Positions 1-62,646 of a stretch of DNA of 64,000 nucleotides are shown piece by piece. A model generated the notes under the pieces. That model was not told the origin of the DNA. It searched no databases and saw only the letters and a program-made list of their open reading frames with translations. The translations under genes were made by a program, and so were the position numbers. Positions within the stretch are counted from its first letter, which is position 1. Every line of letters starts with the position of its first letter. This stretch comes from Eledone cirrhosa (Eukaryota), in assembly GCA_964016885.1 (NCBI GenBank), contig OZ024747.1, positions 46,810,001 through 46,874,000 on the forward strand. The letters are read 5' to 3'.

Positions 1-260
1 TTATCTCATTCCATGTATTTTGATCATGCTTTATTTTTATTTTTATTTTTAATTTCATTCGCACCGTTTCCTTTCGCTATATGTCTCTCCACCACTCCCC
101 TACACACCCTTTGAACTCTGTTCCCCCACACTTCTCACCTGAGGAAGGGCTTATGCCCGAAACGTCGTTCCCCACCAACACCCCACTCTCCAGAGCGTGA
201 AATTAATAAACATTCGTTGTACTGCCTCTCTGTTTTGTTCCTGTTCAAATTTTTCCATTA
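1..260 (+). mobile_element. 3' end (pseudo-LTR) of PLE-like family A, ending in (TA)n
   Basis: Contains an HHR core at 137-168 and AATAAA at about 205, then runs into (TA)n. A near-identical reverse-complement copy lies at 12912-13215 and a related tail at 6200-6280. Confidence 0.7.
137..168 (+). ncRNA. Minimal type I hammerhead ribozyme motif (family A)
   Basis: ac CTGAGGA a GGGC ttat GCCC GAAA cg TC gt. Canonical core, 4-bp stem II, minimal stem III, GUC site. Stem I is only 2 bp. Confidence 0.65.
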
Positions 261-530
261 TATATATATATATATATATATATATATATGTATATATATA
301 TATTTATATATATATATATTTTTATATATATATATATATATATATATATATATTTTTATATATATATATATATATATATATATATATATATATATATTTT
401 TATATATATATATATATATATATATAAATATATATATATATATATATATATATACTTTTATATATATATATATGTGTGTGTGTGTGTGTGTGTGTGTCTG
501 TGTGTGTCTGTGTGTGTGAGTATATATATA

Positions 531-660
531 TACCAAAGGAATTGTGGTAAGGAACCAGATGGACCATAACGCACCAGAGTACTCAATACTTAGGGTAGTA
601 GAGTGAGAAATAGCCGTCGAAACGGCTTGAGCTCTCCCGTCGGGGTCATACTTTTTCCTA
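531..660. mobile_element. Family B fold-back element with internal deletion, embedded in (TA)n
   Basis: Same sequence as 4001-4208. The centre is deleted between two GAAATAG micro-homologies. Confidence 0.75.
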
Positions 661-894
661 TATATATATATATATATATATATATATATATATATGTGTG
701 TTTATATCTATATATATACATATATATATATATATATATATATATAAATGAGGGTAGGGATGTGTGTGTATTACTTTATTTGTTTATGACTAATTACACC
801 GTGTCCCACTGTTACCTGCCTTGTAATGCCTCACCTTCCCCCAATGGGACAATAAAAGAATCAGGTCTCCTCCTCCTCCTTCTTCTTCTTCTTC

Positions 895-1222
895 CTTTAC
901 GCTCTGAGTTCAAATCCCGCCGAGGTTAGCTTTGCCTTTCATTCTTATGGGATCGATAAAATAAAGTAGTAGTAATGCACTGAGGACAATTTAATCAATT
1001 TTCCCCTCCCCAAAATTGCTGGCCTTTGCATATAGTAGTAATAATAATTGTTTCTATATTTGGCACAAGGCCAGCAATTACCCAGTACATTACTGGTACT
1101 TAATTTTATCGACCCCGTAAGGATGAAAGGCAAAGTTGACCACGGCGGGATTTGAACTCAGAATGGAAAGGGCCGTAACTCTATGCGTCAAAGCATGACG
1201 TCCGAACCTCTACCGATACTGC
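895..1222. mobile_element. Two tail-to-tail copies of the major tRNA-derived SINE (895-1035 +, 1047-1222 -)
   Basis: GAGTTCAAATCCC B-box-like motif and the GCCTTTCATCCTTACGGGGTCGATAAAAT core are present in both orientations. Confidence 0.85.
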
Positions 1223-4000
1223 CAATAAAAAAAAAGTCTTCTCTTGTCGACGATCAATAATTATTATTATTGATCGTCGACAAGAGAAGACTTTTTTTTT
1301 TTTTTTTTCCGATTCTTCATGAGTTTGTAAATTCGGGTTGTTTCCTTTTGAAATTGTATTTGATTTTTGCTGCAAAGGGTTCATAGGACTTCCGTCTACG
1401 CCCTATGAAAGAGAGACTTTATAATATTTGGGCCTTTTGATCCAAATATTTAAACTTTGCCCGTTTTTTTCTTATATTATGGAAAAAATAGACGAGTCAC
1501 GTCCACAAAATTTCGTGTGCCGTTTTGGGATAGCAACTTAAATGAGCACCATTGTGGACAGAGAAAGATTAGCAATTACAAATGCAACATTCAATAACAA
1601 AATTAGCAACACCACCACCAACAACAACATGAACAATAACAGTGAAATGGAACAAACAGCCACAATGAAACAAATTATGAAAATAACGGCAACAACTCCA
1701 AGAGCAACAATATCATTAAAAACAACAATAACTGCAACAACGAAAACAACAAGAAAAAGAGTGAAAGCAACATCAACAATAATCTAAACAACTTCAACAA
1801 CACCACCACCACCAACAACAACAACAACAACAAAAACAATAAGACCAGCAACAGCATCGGCGTCAGCAACACAGACAAAACAAGAACTCTTTCGCTGCTG
1901 CGGCAGCAACAATGAGGCCATACTTTAGCATGGACCTTACGCAAAAAGAGCAAAAAGTTGGCCCAGCCATGGAAGCTCATTACACAGAGGGGGGGGGGCG
2001 GGCTGGGCCAACTTAACTGTCCCGGCAGAGGCCATAGAAGCGGCGGAGAGGAGAACTGTGGTCTTTAGTTACATCCCAGTAGAGACTAAAAGAGCGACCA
2101 ACACTCACGAGGCAGAAGTCGAAGCTGCACAGAGGTGCATCAGAGATAGTAGAGAAAACATAGCGAGGGACAGACAACACGGCACCATCTCGGTGATGTG
2201 AAACATTCAGTGACCTTTGCAAAAGCAGCAAAGTCATTATGTACCAGTTAGCACAGAGCATTTCGCCCGATATTCTAATAATTTCGCTAATATATTGCAT
2301 TGGCCCTGTGTGTGATTTATCAACGTCGAAAAGATGATTAACACCGTTAGCCTCACCAGGACTTCAACTCATAATACAGAGACTTGGAACTAATATTGCA
2401 AGGCATTTAGTATGATGCTCTAATGAATCTTATATTTAATGAGTTGGAATGACTGATATGAACAAGAGACCACTCGAAATATATTTTACCGACAGTCCAG
2501 TCTTCGCCATGATAATTGTATGTATGAAACTAGAACATTTGATGGAGTGATATACGGCGTGTATGGGCTCTTTAAACCTGGCAGATCCACTCCTTATCCA
2601 GGTCTGAACAGAGCCGATTTCTTCTAAAGAAGGAGAAAAGCGATTTAGAGGAAGTGAGAAAGAGGTAAAAAGGAAAACTTGACTCCAGTATTGGACTTTT
2701 TATATTTTGGATAATATTGGATATTTTATATTGACCTCAAATGGGTAAAAGACAAAGTTGACTTCGGCGGGATTTGAACTCGACGTGGAGAGAGCCGAAA
2801 AGAATATATCGCCTTTCACCACCATAACACCAAACCGATAGGCTACTGCTTCAGTTGCTGCTGCTGCAACTAAAATCAAACAGGCTGCAATAGATTTATC
2901 GTTCGATATGCTCGCTCTGAACTATTCAGGTTTGTGTGAATCCCAGACAACAGACTGACATCACGTGTCTATTGATACAGTATCTAAATATAGCCAGCTT
3001 TACTTTGTGACTGTCTGCTCTTAGTATAGTAGAAAGTTGCTGCGGCACAGACACACGGACACAAATACGCGTGCACACACACCCGCAAGCACACGTACAA
3101 AGGCTGGACATAATGGTGAGGCAAATACAGGCTTACAACACACACACACACACACACGTATGTGTATATATATATATATATATATATATATATATATATA
3201 ATATATATATATATAATATATATATATATATGATACATATATATATGTATATACTATATATATAAACATATATATAAATATATACATAAATATATATATA
3301 TATATATATATATATAGAGAGAGAGAGAGAGAGAGAGATAAATATATAGATGCACACACACTCAGACACACACACACACATATATATATATATATATATA
3401 TATATATACACACACACACACACATATATATATATATATATATATATATATATAATCCAAGCAGGGAAAAGCTAACGCAAAATGATGATAATGATGATAT
3501 ATATATGTGTCTGTATATATGTATATGTATATATATATATATGTATATATATATATATATACACACACACACACACACACACACACACACATATATATAT
3601 ATATACACAACACACACACATATATATATATATATATACACACACACACACATATATATATACACAAACACACACACACACACACACACACACACACACC
3701 ACACACACACACACACACACACACACACACACACACACATATATATATATATATATATATATATATATTGTCCTACCTCCTTGCGCGCTCTGAGTTCCAA
3801 TCCACTGAGTTCAACTTTGCTTTTCATCCTTTCAAAGTCGATAAAAAAGTTCCAGTCCATTCTTCATCTAGAAAGAATCATCTGTGTTCAGTTCTGGAGA
3901 AGGGTGGGCCACACCGGTTTTATATGTGCCCTAGATGTGCCCTATGGTGGTACCCCTAACACTCCACAAGTTATCGGATATTTATCCTTATATATATATA

Positions 4001-60813: not shown

Positions 60814-61202
60814 GTGGATTGGCAGTATTGGTAGAGGGTCGGAGGCCATGCTTCGCAGCATAGAGTTACGGTCCTTTACGGTCTGAGTTCAAATCCCGCC
60901 GAGGTTAACTTTGCCTTTCATCCTTATGGGGTCTATAAAATAAAGTACCAGTAATGCACTGGGTAATTGCTGGCCTTGTGCCTAAAGTAGAAACAATTAT
61001 TATATTATAGGGCGGTGGATTGGCAGTATCGGTAGAGGGTCGGACGCCATGCTTCGCAGCATAGAGTTACGGTCCTTTACGGTCTGAGTTCAAATCCCGC
61101 CGAGGTTGACTTTGCCTTTCATCCTTATGGGGTCTATAAAATAAAGTACCAGTAATGCACTGGAGTAATTGCTGTCCTTGTGTCAAAAGTAGAAACAATT
61201 AT
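60814..61202 (+). mobile_element. Two near-identical tandem major SINE copies
   Basis: Both share the diagnostic GCTTCGCAGC and GGGGTCTATAAA variants. Confidence 0.88.
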
Positions 61203-62259
61203 ATAGATTGATGTGAAGCAAAACTTACATTTTGGCATTCTGATTTTGGTTGTTGTGTGTTTTCCATTTGCTTAAAGTCTGGCTCTAATTTAGTACTAAA
61301 AATGTAAGTGTGTAGGCTAGGTTAAGAGTCTGTACTGTATGTTACATATTACCACAAGCATATCTAACTATAAACTCCTTATGTCCCATGTTTAGTTATT
61401 GATTAATAAACAGGGATCGTATTTAAACTTCAATTATGTGTTTATTTAAACAACTATTAAAATACTTCAATAATATGAAAGACACAGAATACGTAGGCAC
61501 TACTCAAATGTACCAATTTTCTATCCTATTCCCCGTCGTTAAGGTTTTGCTAAGCTGACACGACATCGCAACACATGCATCTACCGTAGATGAAAACCTA
61601 AAGATTTCGCGTCTTCTCATCAAATCTTCTAAACTCACTCTCTAATTGGTTCTTTTTCTCCCACTCACCTTTTCATCCTACTGCTCAGTACTTTTCTTTC
61701 TTTTTGTTTTCTTTATCTGTTATTGTAATATGCAAATAGCTTCTTTTTTATATTTTACATTTTTTGTGTTGATACAAATACGCCAGTTATATTTACACAA
61801 TCCTATGAAATGACTATAATAACTGAAAATTAAGCGTATTAAACTTTACTGTGCACTGCCTTCCTTTCAGCCAAGGGACTATCAAAACGTTATGCACGTT
61901 CTACTTTCTACTCAGACAGAATATATTTTTAATCAGAAATGTCTTCTAAACAGAAGACATTTTAAAATAAATATTACTTGATTTTCAATCTCCCTCCCCG
62001 ATGAAATTTCTCTTGTTTATTCGTCTAATACAATATACTTTATAACCTGTCTACTCGGTGTACAGCTAGCATTGAAAAAATATACCCCAGGCTGTAATCA
62101 TGTTTTCGTTCGTTCGTTCCTCCTCCTCCTCCTCCTTCTTCTTCTTCTTCTTCTTCTTCTTCTTCTTCTTCTTCTTCTTCCCTCTCCTCCTCATCCTTCT
62201 TCTTGTTATTATCATTACTTTGATATATCAGTCATTATTGTTATTTAACCGGGAAATTT

Positions 62260-62500
62260 GCCTTAACGAACATCACGCCGCTATCTGCAGCCTCAGATAT
62301 TCAGGACGTATCGGAGAGTCATTGCTGTTCCAAGTAGGTATGCCTTCTAGGGTGTTCCAAAAATGGGATCTGCGCTACTGTTCCTTAACCAGCTTTGGAA
62401 TGTATTCGAGATATTACCTAATACTCTTATGACGATAGGGGCGACCTTGATCCCATGATAGTTCCAGACACTTTTCAGTTCCCACTTTAAATCCCTTTCT
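62260..62500 (-). pseudogene. C-terminal fragment of an R4/Dong-like non-LTR element
   Basis: Minus strand: ELKSVWNYHGIKVAPIVIRVLGNIS...KAYLLGTAMTLRYVLNI*, resembling RLE C-termini (PIVIGALG...LQKAALLGTARILR). Followed by a TAA-rich tract. Confidence 0.6.
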
Positions 62501-62568
62501 TCCTTTGTTATATATAAATATATATATATATATATAAATATATATATATATATATAAATATATATATA

Positions 62569-62646
62569 TGTTAGTTTCAGAAGATCCCGTTAAGGGTGAA
62601 AGCAGCGATTATTTGCTTAAACTTTAATCTGTTATTTTAATAAATA
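62569..62646 (+). mobile_element. Family D pLTR fragment with complete U4A hammerhead (62573-62623)
   Basis: AGTTT CAGAAGA TCCCGTTAAGGGT GAAA GCA...TGC TT AAACT, between (TA)n tracts. Confidence 0.78.

Follow-up and report, generated by a model that had tools for sequence, protein, structure and literature searches.

What are the short sequence islands that separate the (TA)n tracts in an AT-rich part of the genome of Eledone cirrhosa, and how did so many of them come to resemble hammerhead ribozymes? We analyzed a stretch of 64,000 nucleotides (nt) of this 3.0-Gb assembly (GCA_964016885.1, contig OZ024747.1, positions 46,810,001 to 46,874,000 of the forward strand), hereafter the window. It is AT-rich, of animal type, and contains 189 (TA)6+ tracts; a search for tRNA genes in the window found none. 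A preliminary description had proposed that about a dozen unrelated families of mini-elements, with roughly 25 hammerhead motifs, colonize these microsatellites at unusually high density. We conclude that the motifs are real hammerhead-type motifs of known kinds, namely the pseudo-long terminal repeat (pseudo-LTR) ends of Penelope-like elements (PLEs) and non-LTR retrozymes. The window itself is very probably a nest of insertions by several endonuclease (EN)-bearing PLE families that target (TA)n, with the retrozymes riding along.

Hammerhead-type motifs between the (TA)n tracts

Motifs were sought with a type I hammerhead descriptor (CTGANGA, stem II of at least 3 bp with one bulge allowed, GAAA, a self-pairing helix III, UH and stem I of at least 4 bp), which was relaxed twice after motifs had been inspected. 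In this form it gave 15 matches in the window versus 0.10 ± 0.32 (maximum 2) over 200 local shuffles that preserved local dinucleotide content and simple repeats, so that motif counts are not similar to those of shuffled sequence. The first, stricter descriptor had given five matches versus 0.02-0.08 in shuffles; most motifs escaped the early descriptors because these required a short helix III and tolerated no bulge before stem II. Scans of the window with one mismatch in the core or a mismatch in GAAA yielded three matches each (versus 1.4 and 0.8 in shuffles, respectively), and the mismatch matches at 9088 (-), 38062 (-), 53903 (+) and 23035 (-) were excluded unless backed by homology.

Descriptor matches and their homologous copies together amount to 29 sites with both halves of the type I core, in 14 homology groups (Table 1), so that the earlier estimate of motifs and families was about right. 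Twenty-three of these cores read CTGANGA, three are U3-A8 variants and three carry U4A. The core sites follow the type I order CUGANGA ... GAAA ... UH, and helices I, II and III can form in the 15 strict matches, while stem I of family B has only 2 bp and several decayed copies fail to form all helices. All 12 positions listed in the preliminary description carry a hammerhead-like motif, but not all are canonical: the core at 8684 reads CAGAAGA (U4A), the one at 56480 has U3-A8 and a 59-nt stem/loop II, and the one at 139 has the 2-bp stem I. The statement that most islands carry the fold was too strong, since both core halves occur in 15 of the 55 short inter-TA islands, and 30 of the 55 are homologous to a hammerhead-bearing family. 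Nor are all families unrelated, as E and E2 can be aligned, the proteins of A and D share 52% identity, and the EN upstream of F shares 44-54% with that of B. The enrichment next to microsatellites was borne out: 18 of 21 descriptor matches (mirror copies among them being non-independent) are followed within 250 nt by a (TA)5+ tract, versus 31% of unmasked background positions.

The stems were compared among 28 hand-picked diverged E/E2 copies, chosen by sequence similarity with wrong-strand and near-identical matches left out. Pairing is retained in 93.8% of the cells, and both sides have changed in 9 of 21 pairs. Compensatory cells, which count sequences and not events, number 38 versus 15.2 in shuffles (none of 500 reaching 38) and 1-6 in slid controls. 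The core nucleotides are fixed across diverged subfamilies while the loops are variable. The hammerhead structure is thus under selection, in agreement with the structural conservation proposed earlier.

Penelope-like element ends and retrozyme units

Genome queries were made with one sequence each of families A, B, C, D, E, G, H, I and J, collecting the 20-30 top loci of each; F, K, M, N, E2 and L were studied through bystander copies in these loci. The collected loci L001-L256 (909.5 kb), which are query-selected and overlap the window, hold 422 descriptor matches in 18 clusters of at least two, including several families absent from the window. The families are dispersed repeats with copy numbers from hundreds to tens of thousands.

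Families A, B, C, D, E, F and J, and the core-less M, represent 3' ends, truncated on the 5' side and often inverted, of autonomous PLEs that encode a reverse transcriptase (RT) and a GIY-YIG EN. Each was traced to its coding region in the E. cirrhosa genome. They share fixed 3' ends, ragged 5' ends and, in longer copies, upstream RT/GIY-YIG coding sequence, in which one open reading frame (ORF) carrying RT and C-terminal GIY-YIG precedes the motif (in one or two loci for C, E and F). The hammerhead lies 30-200 nt before the element's 3' end, in the pseudo-LTR. These 3' ends abut (TA)n in 30 of 30 loci for B, 29 of 30 for D, 24 of 24 for C and 19 of 22 for E, figures that are partly query-selected. 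Inverted upstream partners are present in loci of C, D, E, H, I and J, and two clusters of 3' ends, 34-46 nt apart, occur in H and E. The proposed link between Penelope-type elements and type I hammerheads inserting into (TA)n was therefore correct, while the term mini-element applies to G, H, I and K only and not to A-F, J and M.

Family A is the most abundant family counted, with 19,648 exact matches to a 29-mer genome-wide and 3 in the window versus 0.42 expected. Its genome copies end in the same motif (62,076 first-look candidates; 79-100% identity among 150 scored copies). CAGAAGA (U4A) was found in 43 of 46 distinct copies examined and CTGA in none, and U4A is present in the first 100 of the 19,648 exact end matches. 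We rejected the idea that family A is a dead remnant, as stem I and helix III are intact. Pieces of an RT-EN ORF accompany family B in four of eight extended loci, and the motif stands at both ends of one locus, L212. In the B-related stub at 6189-6277 we noted a second core-like stretch just before AATAAA, with stem II collapsed to 4 nt, which is perhaps a relic second hammerhead of the B pseudo-LTR. Adjoining the full-length B element of L212 is a 736-aa open frame (457-2664, -) of another PLE-like RT with long Asn-rich tracts.

In family C, ragged 5' ends leave copies of 96 to at least 1500 nt (30 loci), and the GIY-YIG region is contiguous with the motif in L153. Family D has 1,920 exact 30-mer matches genome-wide and one in the window (0.04 expected); the same ORF accompanies all three inverted pairs examined, and a 754-aa RT-EN ORF is found in L259. 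A fixed hairpin mini-element was considered for D and was overturned by the unbiased match list and by the ORF in these three pairs. In the left arm of the D copy of L106, the 3' arm of stem I is fused straight onto the core, the arrangement to be expected if the growing cDNA had snapped back by way of the stem I complement. For family E, a 90% variant lies 3' of an RT-EN region in L152, where the untranslated region (UTR) matches sequence upstream of E at 80% over 1,077 nt. For family F, an EN lies 344-428 nt upstream in 2 of 11 copies examined. Family J is a very young Neptune-type element: 46 of 53 matches are 100% identical over 175 nt, and at least 1.49 kb of common upstream sequence with RT-EN is shared by 5 of 20 loci (Pfam GIY-YIG, E 5.9e-7). 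An internal TA run distorts the measured distance of J to TA, which was left out of account.

Family M occupies eight islands in the window. It derives from a Penelope-like 3' end that bears a U3-A8 hammerhead, and the order EN, UTR, parent motif is seen in L153 and L155; counts for the M parent and for K were redone after being inflated at first by TA tails. Nineteen of 28 right arms examined are fold-backs with centers 10-24 nt 5' of GAAA. Family M is thus mostly cut inside loop II and folded back, which leaves copies without the CUGA half and suggests that the ribozyme's own hairpin shapes the site of cDNA snap-back.

The encoded proteins carry clade marks described for EN-bearing Hydra and Neptune elements (PMC8557442). 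The D protein has RWR in place of RWK, DKT, CxCX5C and CxxC-E-N-CxH, which are Hydra marks, and lacks CCHH. The Hydra-type CxCX5C linker is also present in A and C, E and M are placed with Hydra by protein similarity only, and B and J have the Neptune linker CX2-5CxxC. The ESM Atlas neighbors of the D protein (0.95-0.98) include clusters in which 26-50% of members have GIY-YIG and 18-92% have RVT_1.

Groups G, H, I and K are of a different kind. They are ORF-less head-to-tail units of 336-595 nt, that is, non-LTR retrozymes, whose RNA would be expected to circularize. The longest stop-free frame in the G, H and I units is 87 aa, and a search of the 1.5 kb upstream of G, H and I turned up no collinear PLE ORF. 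Wrap-around was found in 8 of 20 loci for G, 10 of 25 for H and 8 of 25 for I, and the I motifs of 6 of 25 loci are spaced 591-595 nt apart. The two 3' end clusters of H are ~34 nt apart (an optional tail), and family G is old (80-85% identity). Elsewhere in the genome, family K forms ~468-nt tandem arrays, such as that of L214 with 11 successive spacings of 466-472 nt; an upstream ORF match was seen in 1 of 30 K copies and is probably a neighbor. A 620-nt contig from one of three public sequencing runs (kind of run unstated) spans one I unit; it fits a DNA tandem or a circle and gives no support for expression. No RNA run was among the public sequencing runs listed as containing such sequence. 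A further tandem array, of a 311-nt unit with the hammerhead core in two opposed blocks of five and nine copies, was seen as coordinates only (G000:C1:1,239,862-1,244,279) and is likely a classical retrozyme array.

Proposed insertion mechanism, genome-wide load and alternative explanations

PLE proteins have been reported to nick AT-rich DNA, with two internal start sites of reverse transcription by which an optional tail is delimited (PMC11167929), and Hydra, Neptune and Naiad elements are described as favoring microsatellites and leaving inverted 5'-truncated copies (PMC8557442). Judging from this biochemistry, the PLE proteins of E. cirrhosa would nick AT-rich DNA and reverse-transcribe from near the RNA 3' end, and synthesis would usually stop early and often fold back. 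Early stop and fold-back would make most insertions hammerhead or half-hammerhead stubs of 50-500 nt, single or in inverted pairs. Stubs of this architecture, single or paired and lying between TA tracts, are observed in the window, and the end clusters of E and H match the published PLE tail (PMC11167929; PMC8557442). Groups G, H, I and K may be moved in trans by PLE proteins, and the palindromic helix III sequences of the motifs could permit dimer cleavage in tandem transcripts, which would probably be slow or protein-assisted.

Several points weigh against a nest of PLE and retrozyme insertions as described here. Adjacency to (TA)n is lower for G (6 of 13) and I (11 of 24). The coding link comes from one locus for family C, from a single 90% variant for E, and for F from two of 11 copies, PLE fragments being packed densely enough in this genome to make chance neighbors common. 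No parent element is assigned to E2, L and N. Pfam did not recognize the A, D or L207 proteins, nothing was found in the PDB for the D protein, and the Hydra and Neptune placements follow from motifs rather than from a tree that includes named references, and are to that extent putative. The Rfam hammerhead models, which the preliminary description had put forward as a check, matched nothing at gathering score in the window or in six loci, and none of the 12 weak Rfam matches at 51,300-52,450 is a hammerhead; the Rfam E-value list, as far as the first 150 of its 480 rows show, is dominated by miRNA models matching repeats. In minimum free energy folds of lone monomers, clean stems I and II appear in only 3 of 14 folded motifs (C, I and J), as expected of weak motifs of the dimer type. 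Self-cleavage after H17 is predicted from the motifs. Formal covariation testing covered E/E2 and D, and in the latter (15 D-type copies) the signal is weak, with two pairs and one clear C-G/A-U swap in stem I; shuffles reach the pairs in 351 and the cells in 18 of 500 cases.

The pattern CTGANGA-N(11-15)-GAAAY has 165,344 matches genome-wide versus 9,448 for the reversed control, a 17.5-fold excess and about 55 per Mb. The window has 13 such matches versus 3.5 expected, about 3.7-fold above the genome mean. Density was judged from three pattern counts (the core pattern, the A 29-mer and the D 30-mer), and since insertions cluster, Poisson P values overstate the hot spot. The whole genome is rich in such matches, with the window as a moderate hot spot, and the unusually high density claimed for it is modest within the genome. 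The genome as a whole is unusually loaded with hammerhead-type motifs. Published counts, with which a core pattern that tests no stems is only roughly comparable, are >6,000 hammerheads in 16 families in a coral and about 5,000 in a mussel (PMC7229834) and, from a section title of the same source, up to 120,000 in the axolotl. Since these motifs escape Rfam altogether, the number of ribozymes in animal genomes rich in microsatellites has likely been underestimated.

We propose tentatively, at somewhat less than even chances, that a burst of the Hydra clade drives this large hammerhead load (>150,000 cores, in one size class), that the most successful family spread with a fixed U4A core, and that family H is mobilized in trans by PLE proteins. 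If so, this genome would be among the largest hammerhead loads known, and the U4A of family A would represent either a new tolerated core or a sign that catalysis is dispensable for PLE spread. Family H, with its (TA)n target, inverted 5' copy and ~34-nt tail, would then be direct genomic evidence for trans mobilization by PLE proteins.

It is also conceivable, though we consider it unlikely, that the motifs descend from hammerheads but have for the most part lost catalysis, persisting as structural or recognition elements or as passengers of the pseudo-LTR, with cleavage irrelevant to spread. The prevalence of U4A in the most abundant family, the short stem I of the young family B and a C3-A8 mismatch in one M parent would fit such a loss, as would reports that catalytic mutants of an anole PLE did not lower insertion in vitro (PMC11167929) and that Naiads spread without canonical hammerheads (PMC8557442). 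Against this stands the fixation of the core across diverged subfamilies, and the compensated U3-A8 swap of I, M and N and the U10.1-U11.1 mismatch are changes known to keep activity (PMC3088659).

We give little credence to all or most groups being independent non-autonomous mini-elements that replicate as short units. This holds for G, H, I and K, and the short fold-backs with clustered centers that make up most D and M copies (a partner 7-8 nt away in 19 of 30 D loci; the M arms above) could be self-propagating hairpin units. On the other hand, longer copies of eight groups continue into RT/EN coding sequence, 5' ends are ragged, the unbiased D list has inverted partners at many distances (0 to 6 kb), so that the clustering in D is partly query bias, and fold-back junctions vary in sequence from copy to copy; for A, B, D and J, this explanation is already refuted. 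Chance matches or assembly artifacts (chimeric fold-back reads) in low-complexity DNA have next to no probability, for although many islands are palindromic and Rfam is negative, the 150-fold excess over shuffles and the genome-wide excess over the reversed pattern already refute chance, many palindromes have arms that are no longer alike (83-93% identity), PLEs are described as having inverted 5' copies (PMC8557442), and homologous sequence is present in contigs of independent public runs. Insertion by several PLE families, with retrozymes alongside, remains the reading that we adopt.

Relation to known systems and other features of the window

Hammerheads in PLE ends, (TA)n targeting and multi-family loads have already been published, and the window does not represent a new kind of system. 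The minimal hammerheads described in metazoan PLE pseudo-LTRs (PMC4209133) are likewise of type I, with short or palindromic helix III, an unpaired nucleotide before stem II and U3-A8; they too occur in many heterogeneous families per genome, mostly as single motifs from truncated PLEs, and in opposite-strand pairs 100-700 bp apart. The account differs in numbers, with about 2,000-9,000 minimal motifs per genome in fluke, coelacanth and frog versus ~156,000 excess core matches in E. cirrhosa, a core-only count that is not like for like. Compared with that account, several E. cirrhosa motifs have longer, stable helices III, and no fixed U4A family was seen in the published descriptions consulted. 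A natural U4C variant is reported as weak in vitro but viable (PMC3088659). We found no literature on U4A hammerheads, and among the papers listed none was devoted to hammerheads of cephalopods or octopuses; subscription journals, supplements and Repbase/Dfam entries may hold either.

Hydra and Neptune elements, the former described from few families of aquatic invertebrates, share with ours, beyond the protein marks, the C-terminal GIY-YIG, hammerheads, (TA)n insertion, inverted 5' copies and a 30-40 nt tail (PMC8557442). Poseidon PAc of the green anole resembles the E. cirrhosa elements in its AT-rich target, two RT start sites with an optional tail and a hammerhead near the element end; it belongs to another clade, and its ribozyme is described as protein-assisted and dispensable for insertion in vitro (PMC11167929). 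Animal non-LTR retrozymes (PMC7229834; bioRxiv 10.64898/2026.07.22.740005) similarly lack coding sequence, are arranged head to tail in units of a few hundred nt, each with one type I hammerhead, and are found in genomes alongside PLEs. The I unit differs from them in its 595 nt, beyond the usual 150-450 bp, and in its U3-A8 and long stem/loop II, and instead of forming long arrays most E. cirrhosa copies, which are known from DNA alone, are partial tandems scattered in (TA)n.

The genome offers material on the role of PLE hammerheads and on the enzyme that moves animal retrozymes: young autonomous families (100% identical copies in J, the 754-aa frame in D), non-coding partners that share their insertion signature, and a side-by-side set of natural core variants (U4A, U3-A8, U10.1-U11.1, 2-bp stem I).

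Table 1. Hammerhead-bearing and other repeat features of the window (positions in nt; strand in brackets where motifs within a feature differ or are listed singly).
Feature	Positions	Strand	Details
Family A, 5'-truncated autonomous element	16569-18651	+	RT end, GIY-YIG frames 16598-17215 and 17131-17628, ~1 kb 3' UTR, U4A hammerhead 18580-18630, (TA)n
Family A, hammerhead	8679-8729	+	core start 8684, CAGAAGA = U4A, U10.1-U11.1 mismatch, stem I 5 bp, helix III 5 bp
Family A, further ends	62573-62623 (+), 5660-5731 (-), 8613-8673 (-), 46606-46670 (-), 57246-57296 (-)		
Family B, minimal hammerhead	137-168	+	core start 139, stem I 2 bp, GAAA-CG-UC; 3' end of ~4.5 kb Neptune-type element
Family B, other sites	13004-13035 (-), 6189-6277 (+)		second copy; related stub
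Family C, inverted pair	4970-5628	.	hammerheads 5019-5073 (-) and 5429-5483 (+) (core start 5434 (+))
Family C, inverted pair	47494-47854	.	hammerheads 47537-47591 (-) and 47663-47717 (+)
Family D, two fold-back insertions	10866-11291	.	hammerheads 10945-10997 (-), 11113-11163 (-), 11160-11212 (+) (core start 11166 (+))
Family D, further copies	37521-37701; near 14004-14128		motif 37640-37691 (+); decayed copy
Family E, copy	12704-12898	+	hammerhead 12785-12850 (core start 12793)
Family E, inverted pair	51429-51733	.	hammerheads 51473-51533 (-) (core start 51525 (-)) and 51628-51690 (+)
E2, hammerhead	48214-48272	-	core start 48262, aligns with E
Family F, minimal hammerhead	47321-47356	+	core start 47325, GAAA-CG-UU
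Family G, unit	51763-52392	+	336-nt repeat; motifs 51895-51935 (decayed), 52231-52271 (core start 52236)
Family H, unit	55483-56314	-	438-nt head-to-tail repeat and inverted partial copy; hammerheads 55615-55664 (-) (core start 55656 (-)), 56053-56102 (-)
Family I, unit	56361-57229	+	595-nt head-to-tail repeat, no ORF; U3-A8 hammerheads 56475-56564 (core start 56480), 57070-57159
Family J, near-perfect inverted pair and tail	57384-57830	.	hammerheads 57504-57542 (-) and 57616-57654 (+) (core start 57621 (+))
Family K, copy with inverted part	28870-29513	.	hammerhead 29076-29118 (-)
L, single hammerhead-like motif	58119-58163	+	no independent copy, weakest member
Family M, fold-back stub	4003-4206	.	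without CUGA half
Family M, other copies	534-658, 5908-6089, 10073-10262, 27420-27609, 30829-30947, 48343-48401, 50831-51014		
Family N	16370-16404	-	U3-A8 core, decayed; fragments 4623-4760, 4844-4943, 27690-27878, 47889-47991
SINE-like copies	895-1226, 9255-9708, 15243-15473, 21823-22192, 32931-33111, 41140-41336, others		
SINE-like copies	43159-43598, 44427-45026, 52914-53365, 58678-58799, 60811-61205, 62700-62933		

The family N cluster comprises eight matches in six loci. Five candidate hammerheads stand outside the count, at 9040-9094 (-), 38070-38118 (-), 31440-31503 (-), 57851-58016 (-) and 4299-4440 (+). They are probably decayed or half hammerheads of other families, one having C3G and one matching the 3' half of cluster 15. 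Palindromic islands without a recognizable core, at 1196-1306, 8119-8338, 28400-28505, 30226-30458 and 34238-34381, are likely stubs of further families that folded back and were truncated downstream of the ribozyme.

A family resembling short interspersed elements (SINE-like; ~190 nt, 80-97% identity) has >20 copies in the window, often in tandem and without a hammerhead, and elsewhere it inserts into the tail of H copies. Decayed remnants resembling long interspersed elements lie at 59,132-59,827 (-), where a coding segment matches Pfam DUF6451 (E 1e-7), and putatively, as read from the sequence itself, at ~22,400-25,000 (-).

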